Positions 1-43,110 of a DNA stretch of 54,686 bases are shown here, one piece after another. This stretch comes from a virus (lineage: Duplodnaviria > Caudoviricetes), in IMG/VR virus record IMGVR_UViG_3300009182_005502, positions 1-54,686 of that record, one strand, 5' to 3'. Each line of letters opens with the position of its first letter. Within the stretch, counting starts at the first letter, position 1. The position numbers were made by a program, and so were the translations under genes. Under the pieces are notes generated by a model. It was given only the letters and a program-made list of their open reading frames with translations, ran no database searches and was not told the DNA's origin.

Positions 1-25
1 AAGACTTCGATGCAATGTCATTCAT
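1..25 (-). CDS. 5' fragment of a gene running off the left edge (MNDIASKS...)
   Basis: ATG at 25-23, 11 nt after the stop of the kinase gene on the same strand; only 8 codons are visible. Confidence 0.5.
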
Positions 26-36
26 GTTAGTTGTAC

Positions 37-594
37 TCATAATTCGTAAAAATCGTTGTTGTGTATTTCTACCTCTTTATCTTGTAAAGCTACAAAGAAT
101 TGTCTAGCACGTTCTTCAACAGAACCACTAAGCCTTACAACAGGTATTGCATATGATTTAATAATACAATCAAAAGATTGCACTACACTATCAAAAAAAT
201 CTTTATTAACTGTTCGTTGACCATCCTCTATAAGAGGTAATTCCGGTTCAACATAAAAAATAATATCATATCTATCAATCATTACCAAAAATAAATCTCT
301 AATAATATCTAATACTTTAATATCTTTTATTAAAGCCATTGAATAAGCATAACCGTCTAAAGCACAACGATCATAAATCGTATCACCTTTTTCGTTAAGA
401 CGTTGAAGATGCTTAGTCATAATTGCAAGTTGAGTTACTTCATCCCCGTCTTCGTTAATATCATACCCCGCTTTCTGCATACCTCTTGTTAAAGAAGTTT
501 TAAACTTAAAATCAGTAAGTACATTTATATCTTGTAAATACTTTACAAGAGTAGTCTTACCTTGACTATGAGCTCCTGAAATAGCTATTTTCAT
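37..594 (-). CDS. P-loop nucleoside/nucleotide kinase-like protein (AAA_28/dNMP kinase type)
   Basis: N-terminal Walker A GAHSQGKTT, DR motif (YDRCALD), YDIIFY and D-G-x-R lid; paralog of 32409..33038. Confidence 0.75.
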   Translation of the reverse strand: MKIAISGAHSQGKTTLVKYLQDINVLTDFKFKTSLTRGMQKAGYDINEDGDEVTQLAIMTKHLQRLNEKGDTIYDRCALDGYAYSMALIKDIKVLDIIRDLFLVMIDRYDIIFYVEPELPLIEDGQRTVNKDFFDSVVQSFDCIIKSYAIPVVRLSGSVEERARQFFVALQDKEVEIHNNDFYEL

Positions 595-1130
595 GTATTA
601 TATACTAAATGCTTTTTCAAAAAAGTAAACCATAAATCCGTAGCATCTTTATGTAATTTTTCTATAACTTCTGATTCTGTCATATCTTCTATAAGAACAG
701 TACTATACTCTTTAATTTCTCCTCCATCAAGCTCAGCTGTACAACGGTGTATTGTATTACCTGACCACTTTAAACGTTCTGCTGCAGCACGCTTCTGAGG
801 ATCTTTTCCTTTAAGGTGAGGGTGAAGAAGTAGGTTAGCAGGATGTAAATTATATATTTCGTACTTTTCACATACTTCTGCTGGTACAATTCTAAGCCAC
901 CCGTGAAGAGTTACAAAAGAATTAAACGGTATATTATGCAGATACTCTCCTAGTGTAGTTTGTTTATTTACTTCAAATATTCTTTCTCCAGCAGAACTAA
1001 GCAATAGTGGATTTACACCTTCTAACTCTTGTTTGTTCGTAACAATAAAATCAGGATACCTACCTAGTTTTTCAGATATATTATATATCTCTGTTCCTGA
1101 TTGACTAAAGAAAGCTACCCAGGGTCTCAT
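591..1130 (-). CDS. PurN-like formyltransferase (candidate DpdN, preQ1 formyltransferase)
   Basis: FFSQSGT, LHGWLRIV, catalytic YNLHP and ELDGG motifs of GAR transformylase; start moved to ATG 1130, which overlaps the upstream stop as ATGA. Confidence 0.8.
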   Translation of the reverse strand: MRPWVAFFSQSGTEIYNISEKLGRYPDFIVTNKQELEGVNPLLLSSAGERIFEVNKQTTLGEYLHNIPFNSFVTLHGWLRIVPAEVCEKYEIYNLHPANLLLHPHLKGKDPQKRAAAERLKWSGNTIHRCTAELDGGEIKEYSTVLIEDMTESEVIEKLHKDATDLWFTFLKKHLVYNT

Positions 1131-1975
1131 TGGCAAAATTTCTTAAAGAGAGATGTATTATAAAAAGCTAATTCTAGCTGTTCGTAGTTAAGATTATGAT
1201 TAATAAATTCAACAAGTTTAACAGACCATTTTTCACTCAATCCATAAACAGGGTTGTATCTTTTACCGAGAATAGCACTTACAATAGGGTTTGACGTATC
1301 TATAGTACTAATAGAATTTTTAAATTGAGTATTATTATACAATTTAAATTCCCACGGAGTAGCACAACCTAGTAGATGATGTGGTTTTTTACTCATTAAA
1401 ACACCATCATTATAAAGACGGGTTAGTAAAGCTACTCTGCCCAGAGTATATCTTACCCAGTTATTAAATCCCATCCAATGTACCCATCTAGGTACAGGTT
1501 CAATTTCCTTTTCAAAAGTATCTATAGAATTCCATTCGTTAAGATAAAACGAATAATCAAATGAAATTGCTATTTTATCAACACGAGGAGCAATATAGTT
1601 ATAACAATCTACTATTTCTTCATACGTCTTGCCCTGTATAACACCTATCTTTTTTCCAGGAAGATTTGTATATTCATTTGTAAATTTTTTAAAGCTCTCA
1701 ATAGTGCCTTTAGAATCCTCTAAAACATCAGGTATAATATACTCTGTAGGACGTAGATCTTTAATCCAATGAGCGTACTCCTTTGAGTCATAAGCCTCTC
1801 CTAACTCAAAAATACTATTATCAAGAAGTACATGTCTGCCCATTTCGACAGACTCTTTATAAAAATTATAATAATCAGTATGAATTGGTAGAAGATGTAC
1901 TAAGCAATAATCGTAATCGTTATACCCTCTTGATGTAGTAAGAAGGCTAATAGGTGTTTCGTGACTAATAAGCAT
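1127..1975 (-). CDS. TGT-fold protein, DpdA3-like 7-deazaguanine insertion enzyme
   Basis: LLDNSIFE, IGVIQG, HHLLG and TIDTS motifs in the order seen in tRNA-guanine transglycosylase folds; start moved to ATG 1975 (MLISHE). Confidence 0.65.
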   Translation of the reverse strand: MLISHETPISLLTTSRGYNDYDYCLVHLLPIHTDYYNFYKESVEMGRHVLLDNSIFELGEAYDSKEYAHWIKDLRPTEYIIPDVLEDSKGTIESFKKFTNEYTNLPGKKIGVIQGKTYEEIVDCYNYIAPRVDKIAISFDYSFYLNEWNSIDTFEKEIEPVPRWVHWMGFNNWVRYTLGRVALLTRLYNDGVLMSKKPHHLLGCATPWEFKLYNNTQFKNSISTIDTSNPIVSAILGKRYNPVYGLSEKWSVKLVEFINHNLNYEQLELAFYNTSLFKKFCQ

Positions 1976-3439: not shown

Positions 3440-5983
3440 TCAAGAAAATAAATCAAATAAATCAGTTTGTACTTCTTTACCAATGATAGGTAGATGCCAA
3501 CCGATAGCATCATAAACAGCTTCAATAGGTGGAGCTACAATCTTACCGAACATCTTATCGTAATCAATTTTTATATTACCAAATTCTTTTGGATAATCTC
3601 CACTAAAAGCAATAGCATCTAAACTATACGGATTTTTTGATGCGTAAAAGAACTTTACCTTCTGTCCTGATTTGATTGATTCGTATTTCTTTGTAAGATT
3701 GAGTTTTTCTAAAAGAAAATTATACGCGAGGGCTGCTTTTACGTGACAGGGTGTTCCTTTATTAAATTTGTTTAAAGACGCACCGGCTGTATACTTGTCA
3801 GGTTCCTTAACAGCCTTTCTAAACGAAGCTTCTGATATACTAAGATTCTTAAAAAGATCATATGCTTCTCTAAATACTTCGTTTGTCTTTTTAACGTCTT
3901 TAGTGAGGAAGGCAGTCTCAATAGTTTTTTGTATAATTGCTTTTACAGGTTTCGGTGTTGTTGATCTAGCAAGCTCTACCCCGACGTACTTAAACTTCTT
4001 CATCGGTACACCTTCTTCATCTAGAATACGAAGAATATAACGCTTTTTCATTAAGAAGGAACCTACATCAGCAATAGCTTCACGCTTAAACACAAATCGA
4101 GGGTCAGCAGAGTTTAAGTCTTCTCGAGCCCAATCTAGAATCTTTTCTCCTAAATGTTTATCAATAGCATCTACAATAGTATGAACTTTAGGATTAATAA
4201 TACAATCTTCAGCAAGTTTAACTCCTAGCTTATCTAAAATAGGCTGTATAGTAATATAAAGGGAATCAGTATCACCGCTTAGAATCAATGACTCATTTAC
4301 TTTAAACGTATCTTTAGCAAATTGATTAATAATATTACCGCCGGCCTTAGCAACAGCTTGACCTGTTAAGGTAATAGAAGAGGCATTATCGATATCCATA
4401 AAGGCAGAATGCTTATTAGCAAACGTACCGTAGATAGAGTTCAAAAGAATCTTCAGCGTATATTGAAGGGTATCAAAGTATTGAATTGAGTCAGTTGTTT
4501 CTTTATCTTCTTTCTTAGTCTTTTTAAGCTCGATCATCTTTTTACGCGCATAGACACGCTCATCGTAAATACTATTAATCAAGTTAGGACAAACCCCTTT
4601 AAATTTTTGTGAGTATAGTACACCTGCTTTAGATAAAGATACATTTTCGTCTTTAAGAAACTTTTTCAGTTTATCGACGGTAAGTGTAAACGATCCACCA
4701 TTAACAAGCTTAATACCAATCTCTTTATCAGTTTCAATATCACCTGTTACAATCTTACCTAGCTTTGTTTCCGGTGAAATATTCAGCGTTATAATTGTAT
4801 TAGGGTATAGAGAGTTAACGTCAAAGCTTACTATAGCTTCTTTGAGTCCACGTTCAGGCTCTCGCACGTAGCCTCCCTCAAGCGCTTCTCTTATTGTTTC
4901 GTTTTTAAACGTAGGAATAACAAAGCCTTGTTTACGAGCTTGCAGAGACATTGCACCTGTAACAATAGATACCTTACCTAAAGCTCTTTCAAAATTAGTA
5001 CATCCTTTATAAGCAAGGAGACGAATAATTTTAAGGTAGTTAAGCTTATCTTCAAGCTTACGAAGCAGATCTACATCCTGAATGTTATAATCAACAAAGT
5101 TTTCCCAGTCTGTATCAGCTAGAGTGGAAAGGTTAGTAGCGTTAATAGCAAGTTTACCTTCATTAAGTTCATACTCAGCAATATAGTTAAGGGAAAACGA
5201 CTCTCTGTCTCCCTTAGAGTATGTTTTATAAATCTCCATGTAGTCCAAGCAACTAATACCTGAGATATACCAACGACCTACGTCTTTACCAAACTTAGAA
5301 AAGTTTTCTCGATAGTTAATTTCTCTTACCGGGGAAAGTTGTTTAATAAACTCATCTCCTAATAAATTTTTAGCACGATTAATAATGTAAGGAATATCGA
5401 ACATCTCTGTATTCCATCCTGTTAAAATATCTGGAGGGTCTTTTTTCCAGAAATTTACAAATTTCTCAAAGAGATCTTCTTCGCAATCACATTTGTAATA
5501 TGTTACGTTAGGTAGTTTCGGTTTATAATCGTTTTTTAAACCCCAGGTATGAATCTTACCGCTAATAGTATCAAGAATTGTAATAAGAGTTACAGGATCT
5601 TTAGCTTTAGCAGGAATAGGAAACTCATTTGGTGAGTAAGTTTCAATATCAATAAAATAAACCTTTAACGGAAACTTACTAAACTCTTCTTTATGCACAT
5701 CCTCCTTGAATGTTTCGATAAGGAATTGCTGATCGACCGGTAAATTACCAAAAAGACGTGTATTCTTTGTTTCGTTTACGAACTTATTGCGTTCAAAAGA
5801 GTTTCTAAAATAATGCTTTTTAAGAGATGTCTTAAAAATTGAAGTTCCATCTCCTGCTTTATCATTTTCTGTATAAAGAAAAGGTGTAAACGGTACTTCA
5901 GTATCTATACGGTCTCCGTCTTCTGTCCAAGTACGAAGATATACAATTCCTTCTTTAGGGTTATAGGTAGCGTTTCTATACAC
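3440..5983 (-). CDS. gp43: Family B DNA polymerase (T4 gp43-like)
   Basis: Exonuclease DIET, GWN..FDIPY, YNIQD; polymerase SFDVNSLYP, KILLNSIYG, GDTDS, KKRY; GTG start. Confidence 0.97.
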   Translation of the reverse strand: MYRNATYNPKEGIVYLRTWTEDGDRIDTEVPFTPFLYTENDKAGDGTSIFKTSLKKHYFRNSFERNKFVNETKNTRLFGNLPVDQQFLIETFKEDVHKEEFSKFPLKVYFIDIETYSPNEFPIPAKAKDPVTLITILDTISGKIHTWGLKNDYKPKLPNVTYYKCDCEEDLFEKFVNFWKKDPPDILTGWNTEMFDIPYIINRAKNLLGDEFIKQLSPVREINYRENFSKFGKDVGRWYISGISCLDYMEIYKTYSKGDRESFSLNYIAEYELNEGKLAINATNLSTLADTDWENFVDYNIQDVDLLRKLEDKLNYLKIIRLLAYKGCTNFERALGKVSIVTGAMSLQARKQGFVIPTFKNETIREALEGGYVREPERGLKEAIVSFDVNSLYPNTIITLNISPETKLGKIVTGDIETDKEIGIKLVNGGSFTLTVDKLKKFLKDENVSLSKAGVLYSQKFKGVCPNLINSIYDERVYARKKMIELKKTKKEDKETTDSIQYFDTLQYTLKILLNSIYGTFANKHSAFMDIDNASSITLTGQAVAKAGGNIINQFAKDTFKVNESLILSGDTDSLYITIQPILDKLGVKLAEDCIINPKVHTIVDAIDKHLGEKILDWAREDLNSADPRFVFKREAIADVGSFLMKKRYILRILDEEGVPMKKFKYVGVELARSTTPKPVKAIIQKTIETAFLTKDVKKTNEVFREAYDLFKNLSISEASFRKAVKEPDKYTAGASLNKFNKGTPCHVKAALAYNFLLEKLNLTKKYESIKSGQKVKFFYASKNPYSLDAIAFSGDYPKEFGNIKIDYDKMFGKIVAPPIEAVYDAIGWHLPIIGKEVQTDLFDLFS

Positions 5984-20482: not shown

Positions 20483-21258
20483 GGCTTTCTTAATTTTAAC
20501 ACTTTAAGTACAGTATCTCTACTAACATCCGGTATTTCATTTACCATTAACCCGTGCTTATTAACAAATAGTTTCCACTGTTCTTGTATTCTCTGCTCTC
20601 TGGATCCATCAGGTCTATCGGTCTGTAGGCGACTAACAGCATTAGGATTATTACATATTAACTCGTCGGAATTGGTGATATCAGCAAACCACCAAAAAGG
20701 TGCAGCGTAGTTAGAACAAGATTCTCTATACGCTAGATCAATATCAAAAGGATCTCTAAATTGAGTATCGTATAAACCAGTTTGTTTAAAAGCAGTATAA
20801 TGATGATATGTAAACTCGTTACACATATTTTTATAAAACGACACACTTATATTCTTACTATATTCAACAGTAAGTCGAGGGGTTCTACTACCAGGGGTTC
20901 CTGATTCCCAAGAAGTGCTAACATAGGAAAAATATTTTAAACCAGATGCTTTAGATGCTTGTATATATTTGTCAAATATATTTACATCTTTAATAATCAT
21001 ATCATCTTCAATAAGAAAAATATGTTCACACCCTCTATTCATTAAAAAGTTAACAGCATCATTTCTACAAAATGCAGGGTAGTAATTTTTACTGTGTTGA
21101 ATCCAGTTACACGGTTCGTAGGGATGTTTATATCTATCACCTCCATTTACTACAACAACATCATTAACCTTATCAAAAGGTAGCGACTCATAAAGACTAT
21201 TAAAATAGTTTTCTGAATTATAGGTAATGATTCCAACTCCGATTTTATTTGTTTCCAT
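20479..21258 (-). CDS. Glycosyltransferase family 2
   Basis: IGVGIITYN, HIFLIEDD, GLYD; start moved to ATG 21258 (METNKIG); paralog of 21245..22054. Confidence 0.8.
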   Translation of the reverse strand: METNKIGVGIITYNSENYFNSLYESLPFDKVNDVVVVNGGDRYKHPYEPCNWIQHSKNYYPAFCRNDAVNFLMNRGCEHIFLIEDDMIIKDVNIFDKYIQASKASGLKYFSYVSTSWESGTPGSRTPRLTVEYSKNISVSFYKNMCNEFTYHHYTAFKQTGLYDTQFRDPFDIDLAYRESCSNYAAPFWWFADITNSDELICNNPNAVSRLQTDRPDGSREQRIQEQWKLFVNKHGLMVNEIPDVSRDTVLKVLKLRKP

Positions 21259-22054
21259 ACGTTTTTTTAATTTGTTTAATTTTACTAATAGTTTCTTCTC
21301 TTGAAGGTATAAGCTGATAGGGGCTAGTAACATCTATTTTAGATTTTTCTGCAAACCTTGCTACTGCTTTTCGAAAATTATCTATCCATTTTTCATCTCG
21401 TCTTATCTCACTACCCGAGTGATTTTTATCTAGTTCTTCAATGTACTTGCTACTATCTGCAATATCCGCAAACCATCTAAAAGGTGTTGTCATATCTGCC
21501 TGAGCTATAAAGAAAGTATGATCAACGTGTTCCATAGCGTTATAGTACTCTTCATCCATTAACCCTACAGCGTCTAAGCACTTTTTTGTATAAAAACTAA
21601 ATGCACCGTAAACGTTTGGATAAAAACAAACAGCTATATCTTTACTATATTCTACCCTTAATTTAATAGCAGGAGATCTATCAGGATTGTAATTGTCATT
21701 ACCGTGAAACGCAAAATTTAAATGCTGAATACCTGATATCTTAGAAGCTTCTATATACTTGTTAAATACATCATTATCTTTAATAATAATATCATCTTCT
21801 AGTAAGAAGATATATTCACAATTTTTTTCTAAAAGGTTAATTATTGCTAAATTTTTAGCTCTACCAACACCAATTTTACCACCTGTCTGTCTTATATAAT
21901 TTACCTTGGGATGAGCAGCAAAAGTAGGCTTATTACCGTCATCTATGATTATTAATTCATCAATATTTGATTCTTTTTTATTAATAGTGTCGAGTAATCG
22001 TTTAATATACTCAGGTCTATCACAAGTTATAATCGCTACACCTATTTTACTCAT
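21245..22054 (-). CDS. Glycosyltransferase family 2
   Basis: IGVAIITCDR, IIIDDG, FLLEDD, VGLMDE. Confidence 0.85.
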   Translation of the reverse strand: MSKIGVAIITCDRPEYIKRLLDTINKKESNIDELIIIDDGNKPTFAAHPKVNYIRQTGGKIGVGRAKNLAIINLLEKNCEYIFLLEDDIIIKDNDVFNKYIEASKISGIQHLNFAFHGNDNYNPDRSPAIKLRVEYSKDIAVCFYPNVYGAFSFYTKKCLDAVGLMDEEYYNAMEHVDHTFFIAQADMTTPFRWFADIADSSKYIEELDKNHSGSEIRRDEKWIDNFRKAVARFAEKSKIDVTSPYQLIPSREETISKIKQIKKTYGNK

Positions 22055-23108
22055 TTGTTGTTAAAGATAGTTTATAAAGATCTAAACATTTATCGAGTAT
22101 ATCTTTTTTGTTTACTTCTGTTTCGAGTAGTTCTACAAATTCGTGTAATGCAGTCTCGACATCAATACTAAAATTTTCTGCATCTGTAGCAGATAGCTGA
22201 ACATTTTCAAAAATATTAAAATCTGTTCTAATATGTAAAGGTTTATACTGATTAAATTTTGATATCATTAAATCTAACGCCTGTGGTTTAATATTCTTAT
22301 CAATACATAGGCTAATAAAATTATTTGATATGGTTGAAGATATATCTTCAAGCTTAATATTACCTTCAATAAGATCTGATATCTTAACTTTTTTATGTTT
22401 TGGTGTAACAGTATTTTCTATAAGCTCAACTTCAAATGTATCGGTATTTAAAATTGTTACACCTTTTGCATGATCTCTATCTCCAAAATCTAACTCGTAA
22501 GGTGAACCTAGATAAAGGATACTACCTCCTTCAGGATATGTTCTGTGCTCTCTATAATGAAAATGACCGGAAATAACAAACTTACTTTTATCTAATAACT
22601 GAATTGTTTTAATTCCGTGATCACAAATCTTATGTTGATTCATTCTAAAATGAGTAATTTCAAAATGACCTACAACTATATCACTTTTAGGTATTTTATC
22701 TATTGTTACTCCCCATGGACAAAATGTCCAAGTTTTTCCATTAATAATACACGTTCTTAATTCTTGAAAGATAGTTATATTTTTATAACCGTTTAAAATA
22801 GATATAGAATTAATATCTGATTTATCCTTATAGTAACAGTCATGATTACCTGTTATAGCTACAATATTATAATTCTTAAGTATATCAAAGAATTTATGTG
22901 CAGCATGAATTGTATTAACACCTATTTCGTGTCTATTGTGAAATATATCACCAGCAATAACTATATCTTTAATATTTTTATCCTTTAAGCTACTGTCAAG
23001 CCAGTAAGCAAATTTTATAGCAATGTCATGCCAAGTAGCAGAATTTTGATGTACACCTAAATGTATATCACTAATAAAAGCTACTTTATTACTATTAAAA
23101 TTAAGCAT
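22047..23108 (-). CDS. gp47: Recombination endonuclease nuclease subunit (gp47, SbcD/Mre11-like)
   Basis: Metallophosphoesterase motifs SDIHLG, GDIFH, GNHD, GHFE, SGHFH, YLGSP. Confidence 0.95.
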   Translation of the reverse strand: MLNFNSNKVAFISDIHLGVHQNSATWHDIAIKFAYWLDSSLKDKNIKDIVIAGDIFHNRHEIGVNTIHAAHKFFDILKNYNIVAITGNHDCYYKDKSDINSISILNGYKNITIFQELRTCIINGKTWTFCPWGVTIDKIPKSDIVVGHFEITHFRMNQHKICDHGIKTIQLLDKSKFVISGHFHYREHRTYPEGGSILYLGSPYELDFGDRDHAKGVTILNTDTFEVELIENTVTPKHKKVKISDLIEGNIKLEDISSTISNNFISLCIDKNIKPQALDLMISKFNQYKPLHIRTDFNIFENVQLSATDAENFSIDVETALHEFVELLETEVNKKDILDKCLDLYKLSLTTNE

Positions 23109-23670
23109 CTTCTGTAGTAGGAGTTACTGCGCTTTCATCATAATACGAACTATTACTATCATCTTCTAGGTGAGAGTTCTTTTGATAAGGTATTTGACCT
23201 GATTCTGCCAAAAGCCCGTACACCTCATCTTGATATCTATGAATTGTATCGTGTTCCTTTTTCTCTTTTTTAATTCTATTTTGAAAAGCTCTATAAGCTA
23301 CTTTTGTAAAGTACGAAAAAGGATTATATCCTCTATCACACTTAAACCTCTTACGCGTTAAAGCAGTAATCATTTTAATAATAGCATCTCCGATCATTTC
23401 CTGCTTATAACTATAGTTAATAAAATTCTGTGCGTAACCTAGACGAGTACCTATTTTTTGAATCATGTCAGCAAGTTCATTATTAAGATCCCCTGTTTCG
23501 TAGTACTTCTTAATACATACTTCCATATAGATAGGATCAACATAGTTAGGCTTTAATTCTTCTTTTGTACGTCGTACTCTTTTTTTAGATCTTTGCTTCG
23601 GTAGAGCTTCATCTAAGACAGCGGATAAATCATCCATGTAAAATTCGTCTTTGTTTGTTTTTTTGGCCAT
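23101..23670 (-). CDS. gp55: Late transcription sigma factor (gp55)
   Basis: NYVD, NFINYSYKQEMIGDA, NPFSYFT..AFQNRIKKEK. Confidence 0.92.
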   Translation of the reverse strand: MAKKTNKDEFYMDDLSAVLDEALPKQRSKKRVRRTKEELKPNYVDPIYMEVCIKKYYETGDLNNELADMIQKIGTRLGYAQNFINYSYKQEMIGDAIIKMITALTRKRFKCDRGYNPFSYFTKVAYRAFQNRIKKEKKEHDTIHRYQDEVYGLLAESGQIPYQKNSHLEDDSNSSYYDESAVTPTTEDA

Positions 23671-28150: not shown

Positions 28151-29110
28151 ATGTTTGAACGTTCCTTTAGTTCTTATTTTAATTCTATTTCTCTTCTTAA
28201 GGAAGGAGGTAATGTTTTTGAGGAAACAGCTCCTATAAAGAGAGAACATATAAAGCCTACTCTTCAAGAATTCTTTAAACAATTTGAAGAGGTATTTCCT
28301 GCTGCTAAGCTTCATTTTGAGGGTATACGTACCTTAGGTTCAGTAGGTAAAAAAGAAATATCTGGAGATATTGATTTAGCTCTATCAGAAGATTCTTTTA
28401 AAAATATTAACGATTGGGGTTTAGATAAAAAAGAAGTTGACTATCTGTTTAATACATTTAAAAAGAAAGCAAGATCTGCCTCTAATGAACAGTTAATGAA
28501 AAGAGCAGTTATAGTAGCTATAGCTGAAAAATTACAAGGCTCTAATAAAGATTTTAATGTTGATATTAAAGGATCTTCCGCCGGAGCTCTTTTTTGTAGA
28601 TTTCCTCAATTTGATGAACAAAAGAAACCGGTAGGTACGTTTGTTCAAGTAGATATTAATGTAGGTAATATTGATTGGCTAACATTTGCCTATCATTCGG
28701 CAACTTATAAGGGTAATGTAAAGGGATTACATAGAACTCAATTACTAGTCTCATTATTTTCACAAAAAGGTTATACCTTCTCTCATAACTACGGGGTAAA
28801 AAACAAGGAAACTCAAGAAATTGTTGCTTCAACACCTGAGCAGGCTATCAATCTTTTAAATAAACTTTATAATATAAACTTTACAGAAGATACAATAGGA
28901 GATTATTTTAAATTAATAGAATCTCTTAAGCAAAATTTAAATAAAGAAGATCTTCACGCTGTATACGACACGTATCTTAAAATACTAGATAGTACAAGAG
29001 CAGATATACCTGAAGATTTACAACAATATTGGATAGATAATCAAGAGCGATTAGGTTTAAAGGGTAAATATCTACCAGATAATTCTAATTTAACCAAATA
29101 TAAGTTATGA
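28151..29110 (+). CDS. Pol-beta superfamily nucleotidyltransferase
   Basis: LGS..GDIDLA (hGS-x-DxD) and the third Asp in FVQVD. Confidence 0.75.
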   Translation: MFERSFSSYFNSISLLKEGGNVFEETAPIKREHIKPTLQEFFKQFEEVFPAAKLHFEGIRTLGSVGKKEISGDIDLALSEDSFKNINDWGLDKKEVDYLFNTFKKKARSASNEQLMKRAVIVAIAEKLQGSNKDFNVDIKGSSAGALFCRFPQFDEQKKPVGTFVQVDINVGNIDWLTFAYHSATYKGNVKGLHRTQLLVSLFSQKGYTFSHNYGVKNKETQEIVASTPEQAINLLNKLYNINFTEDTIGDYFKLIESLKQNLNKEDLHAVYDTYLKILDSTRADIPEDLQQYWIDNQERLGLKGKYLPDNSNLTKYKL

Positions 29111-30645
29111 GTGGAGTAGCTGGAGGAAATCGCATTAAAAGAGAAGATATTCAAAAAACATTTAACGATTATATTAACCTAGTACTTAAAAAAATTCCTA
29201 ATTTTATTGAAGCTACTTTATCCGGTAGTATAAAAACAGGAGCGAAGACTGATTTTGGTGATTTGGATATTATTGCATCTTTTAAAGGTGAAAATAAACA
29301 AGAAGTAAAACAACAAATTATTAACTCAATAACATCTTTACCCACCAGTCTCATTGTACCTTTCAAGAGCCCAAAATATAAAGGTAGAAGGTACTATAAC
29401 GCCGGAGAATTAGTATCAGTGCTATTTCCTATAACAGGTCAACCCGGTCAATATATACAGGTTGATAATATTATAGCTCTATCAAAAGAAGAACATAATT
29501 TTAAAAATATGTTCTTAGATTTACCTGCTGAAAAACAAGGACTTCTCATAGGTCTTGTAAAAACTGTACTTCTTGAAGAAGATTCAAAAAATGTTTTTCG
29601 TAAATTAGGTATTAGAAATTTACCTCCTTTAGAGAAAGGAGAAGAATATGAATTTAACTTAAGTTCAGTTAACCTGTCTTTAAGAAAAGTTAAATTAGAA
29701 AATTTTAAAGAACTTTCTAGGGAAATAATCTGGAGTTCTGCTGATTGGAGTCTTGTAGAAAAATTACTTCAGAATTATAACATTAATTCTTCATTTGAAG
29801 AATTGTTAAACGATATATCTAGTAAATTAAAAAACCCTAGATCAAAAAAGCGAGTATCGGGTATTTTTAAAGGAATGGTTAGTGTAAAATCTGGAGAAGT
29901 TGATACACCTAAAGGAGATAATAAAGAAAGAGCTATAAAACTTGTAACCCAACGTCTATCAGAATCTCGAACTAAGACATTTTTTAACAAAAATAAATCT
30001 TTTTCAAAATTCTTTACAGAATCTGAAAACCAGGCATACAATTTAATTGTTATATTTCCTGGACGCTTTCAACCTTTTCATCAAGGACATAAATTGTACT
30101 ACGATAAGGCGAAAGCAGAGTTTCCTACAGCAAAATTTTATATAGCTACAGCGAGCAATACAAGCGGGGCAGCTTTAAAAGAGCCGTACAAGTACCCTTT
30201 TAATTTTGAAGAAAAAAAGCAAATTATGGTAGCTGCAGGAGTACCTGAAAATGAAGTCGTACAAACAGTCAATCCTTATACCCCTATTGAAATACTTCAG
30301 CAATATAATCCTGATGTAGATAAAGTAATATTTCTTGTTGGTAAGAAAGATATGACAGAAAATCCTCGTTTTTCATTTAAAGAAACTAAAAAAGGCAATA
30401 AGTCGTATTTTCAGCCCTATAAAGATGTAAATCAAATGGATCCCTTTAATACAGAGGGCGGACACGGTTATGTGTACGCTCCAGGTACCTTTACTTTTGA
30501 TATTGATGGTAGACCCTGTAAAGGGGCTACAGAGCTTAGACAAGAATTTAAAACAGCAGATGAAAAAAAGCGTCAACGTATTGTAATAGACACTATAGGT
30601 CATCCGGACCAAAATATATACAATCTCTTTGTTAAAAAATTATAA
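29107..30645 (+). CDS. Fusion: Pol-beta nucleotidyltransferase + HxGH cytidylyltransferase-like domain
   Basis: N-terminal LSGS..GDLDII and YIQVD; C-terminal FPGRFQPFHQGH, PFNFEEK, GATELR. Confidence 0.8.
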   Translation: MSGVAGGNRIKREDIQKTFNDYINLVLKKIPNFIEATLSGSIKTGAKTDFGDLDIIASFKGENKQEVKQQIINSITSLPTSLIVPFKSPKYKGRRYYNAGELVSVLFPITGQPGQYIQVDNIIALSKEEHNFKNMFLDLPAEKQGLLIGLVKTVLLEEDSKNVFRKLGIRNLPPLEKGEEYEFNLSSVNLSLRKVKLENFKELSREIIWSSADWSLVEKLLQNYNINSSFEELLNDISSKLKNPRSKKRVSGIFKGMVSVKSGEVDTPKGDNKERAIKLVTQRLSESRTKTFFNKNKSFSKFFTESENQAYNLIVIFPGRFQPFHQGHKLYYDKAKAEFPTAKFYIATASNTSGAALKEPYKYPFNFEEKKQIMVAAGVPENEVVQTVNPYTPIEILQQYNPDVDKVIFLVGKKDMTENPRFSFKETKKGNKSYFQPYKDVNQMDPFNTEGGHGYVYAPGTFTFDIDGRPCKGATELRQEFKTADEKKRQRIVIDTIGHPDQNIYNLFVKKL

Positions 30646-30684: not shown

Positions 30685-30993
30685 ATGAGTACAACAGTCA
30701 TACAGACAAGTAAAACTACAGATACGGTAACTCTAACTTTAGATAGCGAACAAATAAATTATATAGTTGAAGCACTTTTATTTTCTGCCTCTGTTAATAT
30801 AGGAGCAGTGTGGGAAGAGACGGATTTTAACAAAATGATTGAAATTGCTAAAAATTTAAAGAGTACGTGCAATAATATTAATTTACAAAAAATTTGTTTT
30901 TATAAAGAAGATAATTATGAAGATAATTGGTCTAAAGACATTTTTAATATATTTAAAAAAAATCTAAAGGTATTAAACTTAGAGAAAGCTTAA
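30685..30993 (+). CDS. Hypothetical protein
   Basis: ORF preceded by a TTGAAC...TACTAT promoter-like sequence; first gene of the queD/queE unit. Confidence 0.65.
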   Translation: MSTTVIQTSKTTDTVTLTLDSEQINYIVEALLFSASVNIGAVWEETDFNKMIEIAKNLKSTCNNINLQKICFYKEDNYEDNWSKDIFNIFKKNLKVLNLEKA

Positions 30994-30997
30994 TTTT

Positions 30998-31465
30998 ATG
31001 AACATTAAACAACCTACCTGGCAGAGTACAAAAATTATAACACTCGGTTCATGTGCATTTCGTCAATGGGGTGCTAATCACTCTCATTGTCAGTACCTTC
31101 ATGGCTACCAGCTTAAGGCTAAGTTTTGGTTCAGCGGTAAGGAATTGGATAATAAAAACTGGATGGTTGATTTTGGAGGTTTAAAACCTCTTAAGAAGAT
31201 ATTAGAAGATCAATTTGATCATACCCTTTGTATTGCTGCTAACGATCCATGTCTAGAGCAGTTTAAAGAGCTTGAAAAGCTCGGTGCTTGTGTTCTTCGT
31301 ATTATGCCAGACGGTGTAGGTATAGAAAGAACAGCCGAATGGGTATATAAAACTGCTAATGATTTTATTAATATAGAAACTAACGGTCGTTGCTGGGTAG
31401 ATAAGGTCGAGGTTTTTGAGCACGAAGATAATTCAGCAATTTATTCAGAATGGAAAACAAACTAG
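30998..31465 (+). CDS. queD: 6-carboxy-5,6,7,8-tetrahydropterin synthase
   Basis: HCQYLHGY, WMVDFG, FDH, GIE, terminal EHEDNSA. Confidence 0.9.
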   Translation: MNIKQPTWQSTKIITLGSCAFRQWGANHSHCQYLHGYQLKAKFWFSGKELDNKNWMVDFGGLKPLKKILEDQFDHTLCIAANDPCLEQFKELEKLGACVLRIMPDGVGIERTAEWVYKTANDFINIETNGRCWVDKVEVFEHEDNSAIYSEWKTN

Positions 31466-31659
31466 AAGTTATAGATACTAAATTTGAAAAACTAGTATCA
31501 TCTAATGACGGTAAAATAACTTTTTTTACCTTATTAGCTCTTTTTGGTATATTAATATATGCTTTAATATATAATGTAATTACATTAATTTTTACACCTC
31601 AAGGATTAACAACCATTGTAATCGTAGCCCTTTTATATAAACTCATTTATGCCCATTGA
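31450..31659 (+). CDS. Small membrane protein
   Basis: Two hydrophobic segments; coupled between queD and queE. Confidence 0.6.
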   Translation: MENKLEVIDTKFEKLVSSNDGKITFFTLLALFGILIYALIYNVITLIFTPQGLTTIVIVALLYKLIYAH

Positions 31660-32407
31660 TATTAATACCGAAACATTATTTCTTTCAGACGATAAAGTAT
31701 TTTACACTATAGAAGGTGAAGGTGAATACGTAGGTGTACCGTCTGTGTTTATGAGGATGTCAATGTGTAACCTTACGTGTAAAGGATTTGCATCAGAAGA
31801 TTCTCCTAATGGTTGTGATTCTTTTATTTCTTGGTCAGTAAAGAACAAGATGACATTTGCTGAGATATTTCAGCTTATGGAAGACAACAACTATATTGAA
31901 CATCTTAGAAATAAAGTTATTTTAAAGCTTACAGGAGGTGAACCTCTTATTCAGGAAAAGCAATTGCTAAAGTTTATTGCAGCGTTTCAAGATCGTTACA
32001 ATTTTGTACCTCGTATTGATTTTGAAACTAATGCTACTCTTATTCCTAGTGATGAATGGGAAAAGTATTTTGCTACGTTTACAACTTCACCTAAGCTTAT
32101 TTCTAACGGAGATCCGGAAGAAAAGACATACAAGCCTGATGCTCTTCGCTGGCATGTAGCTGCTGGGTCAGGGTTTAAATTTGTAATCAATCGATCAGAA
32201 GATATTGATGAAATTTGGCGTAAGTATGTTAATGACTCTGAAAATATTAATATACCTTTAAGTCGTATTTGGCTTATGCCTTGTTGCGGTTCTAGAGAAG
32301 AGCACGTCGCTAATGCCCCTGCTGTAGCAGAATACGCTAAAGCTTTACACGTTAATTTTAGTCCTAGATTACAGTTGTTAATTTGGAATAGAGCTCTTAA
32401 AGTATAA
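31649..32407 (+). CDS. queE: 7-carboxy-7-deazaguanine synthase (radical SAM)
   Basis: FYTIEGEG..G.PSVF.R..CNLTC...CDS, TGGEP, ETN, SPK, FSPRLQ. Confidence 0.92.
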   Translation: MPIDINTETLFLSDDKVFYTIEGEGEYVGVPSVFMRMSMCNLTCKGFASEDSPNGCDSFISWSVKNKMTFAEIFQLMEDNNYIEHLRNKVILKLTGGEPLIQEKQLLKFIAAFQDRYNFVPRIDFETNATLIPSDEWEKYFATFTTSPKLISNGDPEEKTYKPDALRWHVAAGSGFKFVINRSEDIDEIWRKYVNDSENINIPLSRIWLMPCCGSREEHVANAPAVAEYAKALHVNFSPRLQLLIWNRALKV

Positions 32408-32408
32408 T

Positions 32409-33038
32409 ATGAAAATTGCTTTTATAGGTACCCAATGTAACGGTAAGACTACTCTTATTGAACAATTTCTAGAAACCTGGCCGATGTATAAGAAGCCAGA
32501 AAAAACATACAGAGATTTAATTTCTGAAAAAAAATTAAAGTTAAATCAAAAAGGAGATGAAAAAAATCAGCGTATTATTTTAGATGCTTTAATTGATGAA
32601 TCTCAGCTTGCTAGCGGTTCTGGTGAAGAAAATTTAATTTTTGATCGCTGTGTATTAGATAATATTGTTTATAGTCTTTGGCTTAATGCTAAAGAAAAGG
32701 TAAGTGATAATTTTATTATGGATTGTAAGTTTCTTGTTATGGAGACTTTAAAGAGTTTAGATATTATATTTTATTTACCTTTGAGACGGGAAATACAACT
32801 CGAAAAGCGTAAAGGCAGAGATATTGATCCTGTTTATAGAGAAGAAATTGATAATATCTTTAGAGCTATAGCTACTTCATATGAAAAAGGTACATCACCA
32901 TTCTTTCCAAAAGAGGATTGTCCTGTTTTAATTACTCTTGAAGGACCTCCGGATTTAAGATTAGAACAAATAAAACTTTATATTAAACCATCTGGTAAAT
33001 GCTTTGATGAATCTGACGGATCTTTAATATCTACATAA
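32409..33038 (+). CDS. P-loop nucleoside/nucleotide kinase-like protein
   Basis: GTQCNGKTT, FDRCVLD, LDIIFY; paralog of 37..594. Confidence 0.75.
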   Translation: MKIAFIGTQCNGKTTLIEQFLETWPMYKKPEKTYRDLISEKKLKLNQKGDEKNQRIILDALIDESQLASGSGEENLIFDRCVLDNIVYSLWLNAKEKVSDNFIMDCKFLVMETLKSLDIIFYLPLRREIQLEKRKGRDIDPVYREEIDNIFRAIATSYEKGTSPFFPKEDCPVLITLEGPPDLRLEQIKLYIKPSGKCFDESDGSLIST

Positions 33039-38233: not shown

Positions 38234-39385
38234 TTAACGGAAACCCATCCTTTTTTCTTCAACTAGGTCTTTTGAATTTAATATTTCAGTAGAATTTAAG
38301 TTATAGATATCGGCTATAGTCATAGGTTCTTCAACCTCGTGTCCAGGTTTAATTTTATCGACAATCTTTTGAGCTGTCTCTACTTTTAGCTTATCAAACC
38401 TATATTCTCCCTTGAGTCTACCTCTACGAAGAAGTGCTTTATCAACGGATTGACGAGAGGAGTTGTAGGTAGCGATAACAGCAATGTTAAACACGTTCGC
38501 CATAATACCATCAGTAATATTTAAAATGGTAGAAACTACAGAAGAGGAATCACCAGGCTCTCTTGCAAGTAGTGCTTTCTCTGCATCTTCAATAATCAGT
38601 ATTGATTGTTTTTTATGAAGTAAAGCAGGTAAAAAAGACGGATCGGCAATAAAATCAACAAAACTTGTCGGTACATAGATCATATCTCTCTTCAGTAAAG
38701 ACGATAGATACTTTATATATGTTGTTTTACCAGTACCGGGATCTCCGTGAAAAAGATATAAACCAGACTCATTCTTATTAAGACTTTCAATTAACTGATT
38801 GTGAACTTTTTCAAATTCTGGCTCATAACATTCTTTTATGTCATAATTTTCAGGTATTGATACTTCAAAAGGATCAAAGCGAATACCGCCGTGTTCATCC
38901 TTTATAATAGTAAAAATAACATTTTTAACTTCTTCTTTAATAAAGAACTTTTCAAAATCTTCTATATAAGAAGGCTCTCCAGGCTTATAAGATATACAAA
39001 TACTATAATGACTTTCTTCTTTTTTAACTCTACGAGACGAAACCGTTCTTAAATGAATAATAGTTTCTCTATATGCAAAAACTTTTGTTTCTGTAGTTTC
39101 AGACTCATCCCAGTAATTACCTGTATCGTATACGGCACTTGCTGCAGAATTAACCGAAGGCATATGAGTATGTTCAAATATTAACTCTCCGTTTTTAGCA
39201 AGAAAAGGAACTATATCTTTTGATACCTCTCTATCTGTATCAAAGGTACAGGGAGCTGTTCCATATTTATTAGTAAAATAAACTCCTACCGGGAAGTGAT
39301 TTTGACTTTGAGATGCTTCGTAGTACTTAGCCCCTACAGGTAGAACATGAGGCTTATAACTTGTTTTTTTATTTGAGCGTGACAT
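38234..39385 (-). CDS. AAA+ ATPase
   Basis: HGDPGTGKT, IIEDAE, LNITDG, DKALLRRGR. Confidence 0.9.
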   Translation of the reverse strand: MSRSNKKTSYKPHVLPVGAKYYEASQSQNHFPVGVYFTNKYGTAPCTFDTDREVSKDIVPFLAKNGELIFEHTHMPSVNSAASAVYDTGNYWDESETTETKVFAYRETIIHLRTVSSRRVKKEESHYSICISYKPGEPSYIEDFEKFFIKEEVKNVIFTIIKDEHGGIRFDPFEVSIPENYDIKECYEPEFEKVHNQLIESLNKNESGLYLFHGDPGTGKTTYIKYLSSLLKRDMIYVPTSFVDFIADPSFLPALLHKKQSILIIEDAEKALLAREPGDSSSVVSTILNITDGIMANVFNIAVIATYNSSRQSVDKALLRRGRLKGEYRFDKLKVETAQKIVDKIKPGHEVEEPMTIADIYNLNSTEILNSKDLVEEKRMGFR

Positions 39386-40310
39386 GATTTACATATTTTA
39401 AGCTAGAAAGCGTTGTACCGCCAGCATAACTAATGGAGCTTTGCAAAGCTTGTTTAATTTCTTTTAATTTTTCTTCTAATGTCATACTCTGCTCAAGTTC
39501 TAAAAGAGTACCTTCTACGTGTTTATTTTCTTTCTTAGCAGCAAAACTAGCTGAACCATAATAAACTTTTCTACCGTTAACCGTAGGAGCTGGAGAATCA
39601 CTGCAAGAAGCAAATAAAGCACCAGACATTACCATATGAGCTCCAGCTACTAAAGCCTTAGCAATATCCCCGTAATACTTTACTCCTCCATCTGCTATAA
39701 GGGGGACCCTAGCAGTTTCCGTACACCATCTTACTGCTGTAAACATAGGAGTATGAAAACCGGTTTGAAGTCTTGTTGTACAAGCTCTTCCAGGACCTAT
39801 GCCAACTTTTATAGCGTTAGCGCCCCAATTCTGTAAATCCTTTACAGCATCAGGTGTTGTAATGTTTCCAGCGATAATAAAAACTTCTGGTAAAAGCTCT
39901 CGAATAAAGGATATCATTTCTTTTATTTTAGAATGATGACCGTGGGCAATATCAATTGTAATGTAATCAACTTTTAAATCTTTTTCTTGTATTTCTTTTA
40001 ATTCATTATAACTATCTTCGTTAACACCAACAGAGATACTAATTGTATTCCAATTTTCATCATTTGCCCTTTGTACAAAAGGAACTGTTACACTATTAAA
40101 ACGATGCATAACATAAAAAAAATTGTTTTCTGACATCCATTGAGCCCATTTGCTATCAATAACCGTTTCCATATTTGAAGGCATAATAGGTAGTTTAAAA
40201 TTGCGGTAACCTAAGGTAACCGTTGTATCTGCCTGAGAACGAGATTCTAATTCAGAATAATTTGGAATTAAATAAACATCGTCGTAATTTAATGCTGGTT
40301 TTTCGTACAT
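39369..40310 (-). CDS. guaC: GMP reductase
   Basis: YDDVYLIP, SNM, YITIDIAHGH, KVGIGPGRACTT, IADGG, YYGSAS, LQSSISYAG; no CBS domains. Confidence 0.88.
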   Translation of the reverse strand: MYEKPALNYDDVYLIPNYSELESRSQADTTVTLGYRNFKLPIMPSNMETVIDSKWAQWMSENNFFYVMHRFNSVTVPFVQRANDENWNTISISVGVNEDSYNELKEIQEKDLKVDYITIDIAHGHHSKIKEMISFIRELLPEVFIIAGNITTPDAVKDLQNWGANAIKVGIGPGRACTTRLQTGFHTPMFTAVRWCTETARVPLIADGGVKYYGDIAKALVAGAHMVMSGALFASCSDSPAPTVNGRKVYYGSASFAAKKENKHVEGTLLELEQSMTLEEKLKEIKQALQSSISYAGGTTLSSLKYVNHVTLK

Positions 40311-41436: not shown

Positions 41437-43110
41437 CTAACTTTCTTTACGTTCTTCAGATTTGTAATGCTCGAATCTATTGTGACTAGTAGGAGTAGCT
41501 AATAAAATACCGCTTGTTATTTCCTTGCTTATAGTTTTTTGATATATGTAAGACATCCAGGTTTGCTCAAAAGGATGAGCCCAGGTAGTTTCAAGAAACA
41601 TTTTTCTATTACCAATTTTAGTTACAACTTGCGGCCAGTTGCAATAATAAACTTCTCCTAAAGCGTAAGGAATTCTTTCATAGCTTTTAATCTCTTTAAA
41701 AAGAGTCTTCGGTGCATTAGGATCAAGTCCAAGCTCAGGCAATCTCTTATTATTTGGCCATTGAGCCTCTCTAATAACTTGCGGTACGTTATACCAGGCC
41801 CATTGAGTACTATTATCCCCGTAAAACTCAGTAAAGTTTAACTTGATAAAATCGAGTTTTTCCTGTTTTACAATTTTTAAAGTATTTGTATATAAATCAG
41901 CTATTTTTCTTATAAATCCGTTAGAGCAGGTCTTATCTTGCCCTGTATAAAAAAACATATCATCTTCAAAAAATAACATAAAATCAAGACCTGTTTTATC
42001 AAAATGTTCTGCTATAAATTGTCTACCTCCACAAATACCTAAATTATCTTTCTTTATATGTTCAAAATTGTACTGTTTACATAAAGAACTATACTTTTCA
42101 AAAGTTGTTTCATCACTTGAATTATCTAATAAAAACTTTTGTGTTTTACTAATATAGTTAGTATCATACGCTAACATTGATTCTATTAATGTTTCAAACT
42201 GTTTAGGGCTATTATATGTTATAACATAAAGACCTACCTTATTAATATCAAAACCTTCTATGATTGTGTCTTGTACAAATTCTATTTTTAAATTGTCGTT
42301 TTTTAAGTTTTCAAAAAATGTACCTATTAACCCGTTAGATTCGATTTCAAAATAATTAATAATACTAGAAAATTTATAACACATTATACTAAAAAGAGAT
42401 TCTTCAGTACCCATAAGGGAATTACCTAATGTTGTTGTTAACAGATCGTAATATATAGAATTTATATCTTGTATAGTATTTTTTGGACCTCCAAAAAAGC
42501 CTCCTCTAGCCACTCTTTCTATTTTTGTACCCGCTATTTCATTTATTTTTTCGTAATTAAAACCGTGTATCTCGTTGTTTGCTTCGTACGGGAAACAAAT
42601 AAAAGAAAACTTTTTTATATATTTTTCTATTTTTTCTAAAACATTATCGTGAGTAAAATAGCCAGGATGTACTGTATTCGTTATACCTGCATCTAACCAA
42701 AACATATATTCAGAATTAAATGCATCCATTAATCTAGCATCATTTAGAAGAAACATTTTAGACATAACTAGAGGGTTATACATCTCAAGTCTTGCTTGAG
42801 TAGAATCAACTAACCACCCTGCCTGCTCTACCCAACTAGAAGTATTTCTTATATCTTGTATTTTTTGATAGTAATCATTATTCTTAAACCACTCTAAATT
42901 TCTATTAATAAATTGAGTATTATGAAGTTGTCTTCTTTCAAAAACAAACTTTTCAAGCTCAGCATCACCGAAAATAATTAAATTAACATCTATTTTTAAA
43001 AGTTCTTCAAACTTATTTAAATAATGCTGATACGATCTTGACCAACCTTCTTGCAAAGTGTCTCTACCTATATTCCAAAGACCTGTTACAATTGTTATTT
43101 TATTACTCAT
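41437..43110 (-). CDS. HtrL/YibB-like glycosyltransferase fused to a GT2-like domain
   Basis: TIVTGLW, FWLDAG, GGFFGG, GTEE; second domain YVITYN, FFEDD. Confidence 0.75.
   Translation of the reverse strand: MSNKITIVTGLWNIGRDTLQEGWSRSYQHYLNKFEELLKIDVNLIIFGDAELEKFVFERRQLHNTQFINRNLEWFKNNDYYQKIQDIRNTSSWVEQAGWLVDSTQARLEMYNPLVMSKMFLLNDARLMDAFNSEYMFWLDAGITNTVHPGYFTHDNVLEKIEKYIKKFSFICFPYEANNEIHGFNYEKINEIAGTKIERVARGGFFGGPKNTIQDINSIYYDLLTTTLGNSLMGTEESLFSIMCYKFSSIINYFEIESNGLIGTFFENLKNDNLKIEFVQDTIIEGFDINKVGLYVITYNSPKQFETLIESMLAYDTNYISKTQKFLLDNSSDETTFEKYSSLCKQYNFEHIKKDNLGICGGRQFIAEHFDKTGLDFMLFFEDDMFFYTGQDKTCSNGFIRKIADLYTNTLKIVKQEKLDFIKLNFTEFYGDNSTQWAWYNVPQVIREAQWPNNKRLPELGLDPNAPKTLFKEIKSYERIPYALGEVYYCNWPQVVTKIGNRKMFLETTWAHPFEQTWMSYIYQKTISKEITSGILLATPTSHNRFEHYKSEERKES

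Follow-up and report, generated by a model that had tools for sequence, protein, structure and literature searches.

The stretch of viral DNA analysed here, called the window throughout (54,686 nucleotides (nt); IMG/VR record IMGVR_UViG_3300009182_005502; Duplodnaviria, Caudoviricetes), is a 54.7 kb fragment of a marine T4-like phage (31% G+C, CheckV completeness of 25%) with two blocks of 7-deazaguanine genes, each containing a small P-loop protein of kinase fold, K1 in the first and K2 in the second, and the association of such kinases with the guanine-exchanging enzyme DpdA3 is the subject of this analysis. The first block lies on the minus strand in the order dpdA3 (1127..1975), dpdN (591..1136), K1 (37..594) and the start of queF (40..1), and every junction in it overlaps: dpdN and K1 share 4 nt, and the stop of K1 and the start of queF overlap as ATGA. 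The dpdA3 gene codes for a minimal barrel of the tRNA-guanine transglycosylase (TGT) fold, with 282 amino acids (aa) from the ATG at 1975 (a TTG at 1999 would give 290 aa), and dpdN for a formyltransferase-like protein of the PurN superfamily (Formyl_trans_N, 37.4 bits; PurN is the top NCBIfam match). The 5' end of queF (1..40, minus strand), 13 codons truncated by the window edge, reads MSTTNMNDIASKS and is identical to the start of the QueF-like open reading frame (ORF) that follows K1 in a relative, locus L007. The second block lies on the plus strand and comprises p102 (30685..30993), a conserved 102-aa gene that heads it; a queD-like gene of the PTPS fold (30998..31465; Pfam PTPS, 62.8 bits, with QueD as the top NCBIfam match, under the equivalog cut-off); a gene for a 69-aa hydrophobic protein (31450..31659); a queE-like gene for a radical S-adenosylmethionine enzyme (31649..32407; Fer4_12, 26 bits, five QueE NCBIfam models being the best matches, all under cut-off); and K2 (32409..33038).

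An earlier note on this DNA, made from its letters alone, had described two kinase ORFs that share the motifs MKIA..G....GKTT, DRC.LD and DIIFY, one following dpdA3- and dpdN-like genes and the other following queE by 1 nt. Both ORFs exist as described, each with the first motif at its start and the other two further on, and K2 begins 1 nt past the stop of queE. The identity of the genes before K1 has been confirmed by comparison with the Flavobacterium phage immuto, whose DpdA3 is 43% identical (E = 4e-73) and whose DpdN (immuto26A_67 of immuto_2-6A) is 45% identical (E = 2e-47) to the window proteins. The same note had each half of the pathway end in a kinase, which is not so for K1, since the 13 codons of queF (40..1) end the first block.

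K1 (185 aa) and K2 (209 aa) match Pfam AAA_28 (PF13521, a family that takes in the NadR kinase domain; gathering score of 27 bits) with 50.1 and 46.9 bits, respectively, and they are paralogous P-loop proteins, with 34% identity across 131 residues in BLASTP (E = 6e-12). Both stand alone, without an NMNAT or helix-turn-helix domain. The predicted model of K1 (mean pLDDT, the predicted local distance difference test, of 88.3) finds its closest folds among thymidylate kinases, the NadR kinase domain and deoxynucleoside kinases (E about 1e-6; query TM-scores, TMq, of 0.60-0.68, with 0.68 for NadR 6gyf), at 14-21% identity to any solved kinase. Searched against solved structures, the K1 profile matches thymidine monophosphate (TMP) kinase, deoxynucleoside kinase and NadR with E-values of 8e-7, 1e-6 and 3e-4, and the closest solved relative of the K2 family profile is deoxyguanosine kinase 2jaq (E = 8.5e-5). 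The residues G7, G12, K13, T15, R37, Q55, D75, R76, C77, R127 and R162 are invariant in the K1 family, and K1 carries the Walker A motif, the DRC motif and the lid arginine; the DRC motif occupies what we take to be the place of the DR(Y/H/F) or ERS motifs of NadR, TMP and deoxynucleoside kinases. The profile alignments to TMP and deoxynucleoside kinases are too loose for placing R37 or E48. Neither K1 nor K2 matches Pfam Thymidylate_kin (PF02223) or dNK at E <= 0.01, and the homologous kinase of immuto reaches 17.3 bits against Thymidylate_kin, under the cut-off of 27, the fold alone being in common. The predicted fold of K1 and the profile matches of both proteins place K1 and K2 in the class of small-molecule nucleoside or nucleotide kinases, a class in which the fold does not fix the acceptor; a nucleoside kinase is as possible as a monophosphate kinase, because the fold is that of TMP kinases but equally that of deoxynucleoside kinases and of the ribosylnicotinamide kinase of NadR. 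One K2-like protein (L158, 10001-10630) has a degenerate P-loop, with GR for GK, and may be inactive.

The protein encoded at 1127..1975 is assigned by homology to the DpdA3 subfamily of phages with fully replaced guanine: besides its likeness to the immuto protein, it is 40% identical to gp056 of the Campylobacter phage CP220 (E = 3e-57), and DpdA3 members of the type found in phage phiST are more distant (23-26% identity). Its predicted model (pLDDT 94.1) matches TGT chains best in Foldseek (E = 3e-7, TMq of 0.59-0.65). The TGT-type barrel is common to DpdA3, to the bacterial DpdA/DpdB system and to the phage enzymes DpdA1 and DpdA2, but DpdA3 is much shorter, with some 265-290 aa versus 436 aa for the solved DpdA chain. 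Across 21 DpdA3 sequences, D52, D83, H200 and D226 are invariant, and the D226 region matches the nucleophile region of Salmonella DpdA 7ui4 weakly (profile E of 0.064). According to the main text of the structural paper on Salmonella DpdA, a 128-residue insertion between strand 8 and helix 8 (Ins8), pinned by a zinc site of the form CXCX2CX22H, forms the DNA-binding surface of that enzyme; its authors state that the DpdA family conserves the insertions and the zinc site and that the TGT counterpart holds the tRNA stem (PMC10164549). The DpdA3 model has about 36 residues between strand 8 (222-227) and the terminal helix (264-281), that is, no large insertion of the Ins8 kind, and neither the CXCX2CX22H site nor a CxCxxC motif was found in the 21 DpdA3 sequences, in which C124 is the lone nearly invariant cysteine. 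Because Ins8 and the zinc site are both missing, DpdA3 appears from its model to be a bare TGT barrel without the parts by which TGT and DpdA hold nucleic acid. Twenty of the 21 sequences are acidic, which lends weak support.

The conservation of the pairing was followed at the protein level throughout, since blastn searches of both blocks against the phage collection gave no matches. In IMG/VR, 86 K1 loci were gathered, 14 from K1 alone and the best 80 of 207 from the family alignment, with overlaps between the scans. In 79 of the 86 loci, whose K1 relatives are 36-100% identical to K1, DpdA3 lies on the same strand and at most 1.3 kb upstream of the kinase; the remaining seven stand at contig ends, with at most 925 nt upstream, and five of them still have DpdN. 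A DpdN gene separates DpdA3 from the kinase in 49 of the 86, and 72 of the 82 loci with at least 900 nt downstream have QueF after the kinase. In one locus (L069, 9458-10546), DpdN and the AAA_28 kinase are fused into a single protein of 362 aa directly after DpdA3. Another fusion (L085, 6123-7079) consists of an AAA_28 kinase and a C-terminal extension that matches GNAT weakly (E = 0.0023), a hint that the preQ1 base of this phage is acetylated and not formylated. A small phosphoribosyltransferase resembling immuto26A_60 is repeatedly encoded no more than 10 kb from DpdA3 and its kinase (IMG/VR loci L028, L030-L032, L044, L071, L073, L081-L087 and L091; positions 5357-5752 of the immuto locus, L001), and it could recycle the released guanine or form a ribonucleotide of the deaza base.

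The same association has been found outside IMG/VR. Among 50,697 phage records, relatives of K1 or K2 occur in Flavobacterium immuto phages (4 records), Campylobacter phages of the CP220 type (17) and Streptomyces phages only, the last with 19 records matched by K2 and 42 by K1. DpdA3 matches come from the same 4 Flavobacterium records, from 14 Campylobacter records and from 7 of Bacillus or Weizmannia; of the three extra Campylobacter records, one, CC_R7, encodes a divergent DpdA3 with a K1-family gene directly after it, and two represent another contig of a phage whose DpdA3 sits on a separate record. A survey of 185,579 species, with one genome each, gave 19 matching loci. Two of them match at >=35% identity, and both are DpdA3-DpdN-K1-QueF on contigs of metagenome-assembled genomes (MAGs); the remaining 17, some of them on marine Synechococcus chromosomes, are distantly related cellular AAA_28 genes with neither dpd nor que genes nearby. 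Thus the co-occurrence of the kinase with dpdA3 that the earlier note had proposed as a check is strongly positive for the orthologous groups of K1 and K2, which are tied to dpd or que genes in all examinable cases; the tie does not extend to the wider AAA_28 family, whose distant members occur without deazaguanine genes. The cellular AAA_28 genes of marine Synechococcus that match K1 (L194, L196 and L197) may represent a host-side origin of the phage kinase; the L196 gene also matches K2, as do two MAG-contig loci (L191 and L195), at 27-29% identity (E from about 1e-17 to 1e-18).

The pairing is present, in different forms, in each of the DpdA3 phage lineages examined. In immuto, the order is a MazG-like gene, a hypothetical gene, DpdA3, a hypothetical gene, DpdN, the AAA_28 kinase and QueF, with PolA further on; in CP220 it is an HD+AAA_33 gene, DpdA3 and AAA_28; and in CC_R7 a DpdA3-like gene is followed by the kinase. 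In Bacillus phage BSTP12 and Weizmannia phage Youna2, a P-loop protein of 183-187 aa, which matches the K1 profile with an E-value of 0.013 only, precedes the DpdA3-like gene and PolA. Another example is phiST, the founding phage for DpdA3, with a MazG-like gene, a hypothetical gene, a P-loop protein, DpdA3, a hypothetical gene and the alpha subunit of PolIII, where the P-loop protein is annotated in its record as PF13238 (AAA_18). Two T4-like records (G001 and G003) have homologous P-loop proteins of 138-143 aa followed by a DpdA3 of the phiST type. The G001 protein, the sole one of the two scored with Pfam, is AAA_18 and 29% identical to that of phiST (E = 6e-14); its DpdA3 is 42% identical to the phiST one, and the DpdA3 of G003 was grouped with the phiST type by alignment. 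Because different kinase families fill the same place in different lineages, the data point to kinase activity as such as what matters beside DpdA3. A crude scan of the flanks for an ORF of 110-260 aa with an N-terminal Walker A motif within 2.5 kb was positive in eight of nine DpdA3 loci, the ninth, phiST, having a GKD variant, and in none of 17 DpdA1 loci of the 9g type, which are closely related to each other. In phage 9g itself, nothing matches the K1 family and none of the genes beside DpdA is annotated as a kinase. The conservation of a kinase next to DpdA3 thus clearly exceeds what chance would give and is not confined to a single clade.

The distribution of K2 is wider and looser. At E <= 0.001 its family has 472 proteins, versus 143 for K1. 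Among the best 80 of 356 IMG/VR matches, QueE ends at most 400 nt upstream of K2 in 55 of the 76 loci with at least 800 nt upstream; in the other 21, QueE is elsewhere in the locus in six and not present in 15, namely L115 and the 14 most distant loci (at most 53% identity). When the K2-bearing records were searched whole, six of 14 were found to have DpdA3 or a DpdA3 of the phiST type, and the eight without it are fragments of 17-61% completeness; all three complete K2-bearing genomes have one or the other (G001, G002 and G015, the last through locus L019), and G015 holds both kinases together with DpdA3. In the tree, the K2 clade is supported at 100/99 and loosely nested within the K1-like radiation, and gp006 of CP220 and the Streptomyces protein sit on long branches with unsure placement, so that orthology of K2 and gp006 is not resolved by the tree (support of 80/50). 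Streptomyces phage Jay2Jay has the distant kinase, and neither DpdA3 nor QueD was found in it. Pfam scans of the neighbours of two distant K2 relatives (L160 and L170) returned one weak RNA-ligase match and nothing else, and the 256-aa gene that follows K2 in the window has no counterpart in these two loci. The gene p102 precedes QueD in 56 of the 80 K2 loci, and in L159, L166 and L167 it stands directly before K2, without intervening queD and queE, which suggests that the queD-queE pair is a cassette inserted between an older p102-K2 pair near the primase gene. The adjacency of K2 and queE may accordingly stem from a cassette placed beside a pre-existing K2. The 69-aa ORF between queD and queE is present in immuto as well (L001, 3885-4094) and in some IMG/VR loci, where it would put a membrane protein, oddly, within an operon for base synthesis.

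Comparison with known systems places the window closest to immuto, which has the same order of DpdA3, DpdN, AAA_28 and QueF and the same arrangement of queD, small ORF and queE; its kinase, annotated as 'thymidylate kinase', is 37% identical to the window kinase. Because gene order and protein identities (43, 45 and 37%) are shared, the window phage probably also makes a formylated preQ1 base, by analogy with immuto. The two differ in that immuto has one kinase, a MazG-like protein, a phosphoribosyltransferase and a family A polymerase, whereas the window has two kinases and gp43, and neither MazG nor HD was found in it. In the CP220 group, in which 2'-deoxy-7-amido-7-deazaguanosine (dADG) replaces all G, an AAA_28 kinase (gp057, with 33% identity to K1) comes directly after DpdA3 (gp056), and a second AAA_28 copy (gp006) lies beside a dUTPase, hence two paralogous kinases per genome, as in the window; unlike the window, this group has no DpdN or QueF, and an HD+AAA_33 protein precedes DpdA3. 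In general, the neighbour of DpdA3 is a protein of nucleotide-kinase fold, whereas that of bacterial DpdA is a ParB-like ATPase and DpdA1 loci are without such a kinase.

These observations can be assembled into a pathway in which the modification precedes replication. The Que enzymes would produce the free base preQ1, which DpdA3 would exchange for guanine on free deoxyguanosine or dGMP, and not on finished DNA; DpdN, being PurN-like, would add the formyl group to the side chain; K1 would phosphorylate the modified deoxynucleoside or deoxynucleotide; K2 might carry out a second phosphorylation or serve a second substrate, or alternatively contribute to the supply of GTP or NAD; and the polymerase would incorporate the modified deoxynucleoside triphosphate (dNTP), which would explain complete G replacement. 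The substrates and the order of the steps are read from gene context, on top of gene identities, paralogy, folds and a linkage across lineages that were observed directly, and we give this sequence of base exchange on a free deoxynucleoside or deoxynucleotide, phosphorylation and incorporation a probability of roughly 50%. The earlier note had already proposed a route of this kind, and the part of it that has gained support is that kinases of different families adjoin DpdA3 and that DpdA3 is without Ins8 and the zinc site; it is the best-supported reading, and unproven. Replacement at the level of the nucleotide pool is the simplest account because a barrel without polymer-binding parts goes together with an obligatory neighbouring kinase of varying family, with frequent MazG-like or HD and polymerase neighbours, and with a replacement of 100% versus at most 30%: the main text of the paper that defines DpdA3 gives 100% for the DpdA3 phages CP220, phiST and immuto and 0.01-30% for other DpdAs (PMC10516641). 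The same text reports that DpdA3 failed in a heterologous test in Escherichia coli in which DpdA2 worked, and it cites the detection of the nucleoside ADG in infected cells (PMC10516641); both fit a pre-replicative route, as does the acceptance of 7-substituted 7-deaza-dGTP by polymerases cited in an earlier main text (PMC6884629).

Pre-replicative models exist in T4, with its dCMP hydroxymethylase, its gp1 deoxynucleoside monophosphate (dNMP) kinase and its dCTPase. The substrate of PurN, to which DpdN is related, is a ribose-5-phosphate compound. The comparison of DpdN with PurN is also made in the main text of PMC10516641, and the PurZ pathway for diaminopurine is summarised in that of PMC12783734. 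The T4 and PurZ routes share the proposed logic, in which a mononucleotide is modified and phosphorylated, the polymerase incorporates it and replacement is complete; unlike in these routes, the modifier would here be a TGT barrel and not a homologue of thymidylate synthase or PurA. A route through modified dGTP was in fact proposed in 2019 for Campylobacter phages (PMC6884629, main text) and set aside in 2023 with the discovery of DpdA3 (PMC10516641, main text), and a paper of 2025 lists deazaguanine in its main text as a modification at the level of the nucleic acid (PMC12783734). Searches of main texts found no paper linking a kinase to DpdA3; the word 'kinase' has no occurrence in the main texts of PMC10516641, which defines DpdA3 and DpdN, and of PMC6884629, and the main text on CC_R7 lists 'thymidylate kinase' among nucleotide-metabolism genes only (PMC12398825). 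The pre-replicative reading contradicts the published post-replicative proposal.

Several points weigh against modification before replication. Action on free nucleotides is not known for any TGT-fold enzyme, and the active site does not discriminate, because DpdA3 keeps the Asp and His residues expected of any transglycosylase. The counts given above come from the best 80 of 207 K1 matches and the best 80 of 356 K2 matches in IMG/VR, and the 86 K1 loci are not independent because they belong mostly to one broad T4-like clade, as seen in their neighbours of T4 type (PolB in 33, a RecA-like gene in 41, gp32 in 23 and gp23 in 25); on the side of K2, the 15 of 76 loci without QueE count in the same direction. 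A route that excludes dGTP appears to be missing in the window lineage, because MazG (PF03819), MazG-like (PF12643) and HD (PF01966) genes, the dNTPase families that were searched, were not found in the window or in the complete genome G015; a MazG-like gene does stand beside DpdA3 in phiST and immuto, and an HD gene in CP220. The base content of the DNA of the window phage is itself a prediction from its genes. The published view, as expressed in the main text of PMC10516641, is that DpdA3 acts on DNA after replication. Finally, neither linkage nor fusion proves a small-molecule substrate, because base exchange by bacterial DpdA depends on the ATPase DpdB (PMC10164549, main text), which also makes too strong the earlier premise that canonical DpdA acts without a helper, and because the 5-hydroxymethyluracil DNA kinase (5-HMUDK) of thymidine-hypermodifying phages is described in the main text of PMC8989533 as a P-loop kinase that acts on bases in DNA, is encoded within a cluster of DNA-modification genes and in some cases forms a fusion protein with partner enzymes.

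The last two precedents lead to the alternative that DpdA3 acts on finished DNA and the adjoining P-loop protein is an ATP-using helper, either a stand-in for DpdB or a DNA kinase like 5-HMUDK. The close packing of the operon and the L069 fusion would be expected of a protein partner no less than of a pathway step, and the authors who define DpdA3 favour the post-replicative route in their main text (PMC10516641). We consider this alternative unlikely, if worth serious attention, for K1 has the fold and motifs of nucleoside and nucleotide kinases and not the ParB-like fold described for DpdB in the main text of PMC10164549, and the substitution of unrelated kinase families for each other beside DpdA3 would be unusual in a specific protein partner. 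The likeness to 5-HMUDK is also limited: that enzyme phosphorylates a hydroxyl of the base in DNA, whereas 2'-deoxy-7-(formylaminomethyl)-7-deazaguanosine (fdPreQ1), dADG and 2'-deoxy-7-deazaguanosine (dDG), to judge from their structures, share no base hydroxyl for a kinase to activate, and K1 matches no 5-HMUDK-bearing phage at E <= 1e-3. In addition, a DpdA3 at work on DNA would have to do so without the DNA-contacting Ins8 and the zinc site.

Another explanation keeps DpdA3 on DNA and makes the kinases supply or salvage enzymes for ordinary metabolites, for example a GMP or dNMP kinase that recycles the released guanine to GTP for FolE, or a NadR-type kinase that, with an NMNAT-like gene, keeps NAD(P)H available for QueF. 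AAA_28 is indeed the family of the NadR kinase domain, and many relatives are labelled 'nicotinamide riboside kinase' by JGI (the Joint Genome Institute); a 512-aa protein ending in an HxGH cytidylyltransferase/NMNAT-like domain is encoded 1.8 kb upstream of K2 by the second of two adjacent plus-strand genes (28151-29110 and 29107-30645), and this domain recurs upstream of p102-queD-queE-K2 in 23 of the 80 K2 loci; the small phosphoribosyltransferase recurs in many K1 loci; and distant AAA_28 relatives without dpd or que genes exist in Streptomyces phages and on marine Synechococcus chromosomes. On the other hand, the NMNAT-like domain is found in none of the 86 K1 loci, and a link to NADPH is not general because K1 follows DpdA3 even where QueF is absent (L023-L032, L069 and CP220). 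Supply enzymes are also rarely locked to one partner, whereas here the partner is present in 79 of 79 informative loci, so that the supply explanation appears rather improbable. That the linkage is merely an inherited gene order without shared function would fit the concentration of most IMG/VR loci in one T4-like clade, with gp43, UvsX, gp32 and gp23 as neighbours, and the persistence of K2 next to p102 and primase in loci without queD and queE. It is nevertheless very improbable, given that unrelated types of phage, which differ in polymerase and kinase family, show the same adjacency, that the genes overlap by 4 nt, that a fusion of DpdN and kinase exists, and that DpdA1 loci have no such gene. 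A CTP_transf_like gene lies 4 kb upstream of the kinase-DpdA3 pair in G001, and the NMNAT-like domain encoded upstream of K2 may serve either NAD salvage or a nucleotidyl transfer within the pathway.

The remainder of the window gives the setting of these genes. Its replication genes are the gp43 polymerase, UvsW-like and UvsY-like genes, a primase and a clamp-loader-like ATPase. The gp43-type family B DNA polymerase (3440..5983, minus strand) lies directly upstream of the block of heme oxygenase (ho1), bilin reductase and dpdA3, and it is presumed to be the enzyme that would incorporate the modified dNTP; in 33 of the 86 K1 loci, a homologous PolB of 853 aa adjoins the module. The heme oxygenase and ferredoxin-dependent bilin reductase genes (2202-3406, minus strand), between gp43 and dpdA3, are auxiliary genes of the cyanophage type and indicate a picocyanobacterial host, and the source of the window is an uncultured T4-like myovirus with added genes of that type. 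A GMP reductase (39369..40310, minus strand; NF003966 equivalog, 387.8 bits versus a cut-off of 344) is shared with the complete relatives G015 and G002 and was not found in immuto, CP220, phiST, BSTP12, 9g or Jay2Jay. If the phage keeps G out of its DNA, as it may, the reductase could be an accessory that lowers the guanine nucleotide pool; as a general component of the DpdA3 system it was rejected, because it is restricted to the T4-like clade. Two runs of glycosyltransferase, methyltransferase and sugar-modifying genes (6026-23670 and 41437-48369, minus strand) include GT1, GT2, GT10 fucosyltransferase-like, GT25, FkbM, epimerase-like and RXYLT1-like genes, to an extent unusual for a T4-like phage.

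Phage DNA with every G as 7-deazaguanine resists most restriction enzymes, and the route to complete replacement is unsettled. The wider claim that can be put forward, somewhat more tentatively than the pathway itself, is that DpdA3, instead of being a DNA transglycosylase, would be the first enzyme of the TGT fold to put a 7-deazaguanine in the place of guanine in free deoxynucleosides or deoxynucleotides, and that with a cognate small kinase, of a family that varies by lineage, it forms a widespread pre-replicative pathway behind every known complete G replacement in phage DNA. The pairing of DpdA3 with a kinase may explain the failure of DpdA3 in E. coli. If the pre-replicative reading is wrong, the kinase would still be an unrecognised obligatory partner of DpdA3. 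If it is true, it would overturn the published view of all 7-deazaguanine DNA modification as post-replicative, and would provide an enzymatic route to 7-substituted 7-deaza-dNTPs together with a new activity for the TGT fold.

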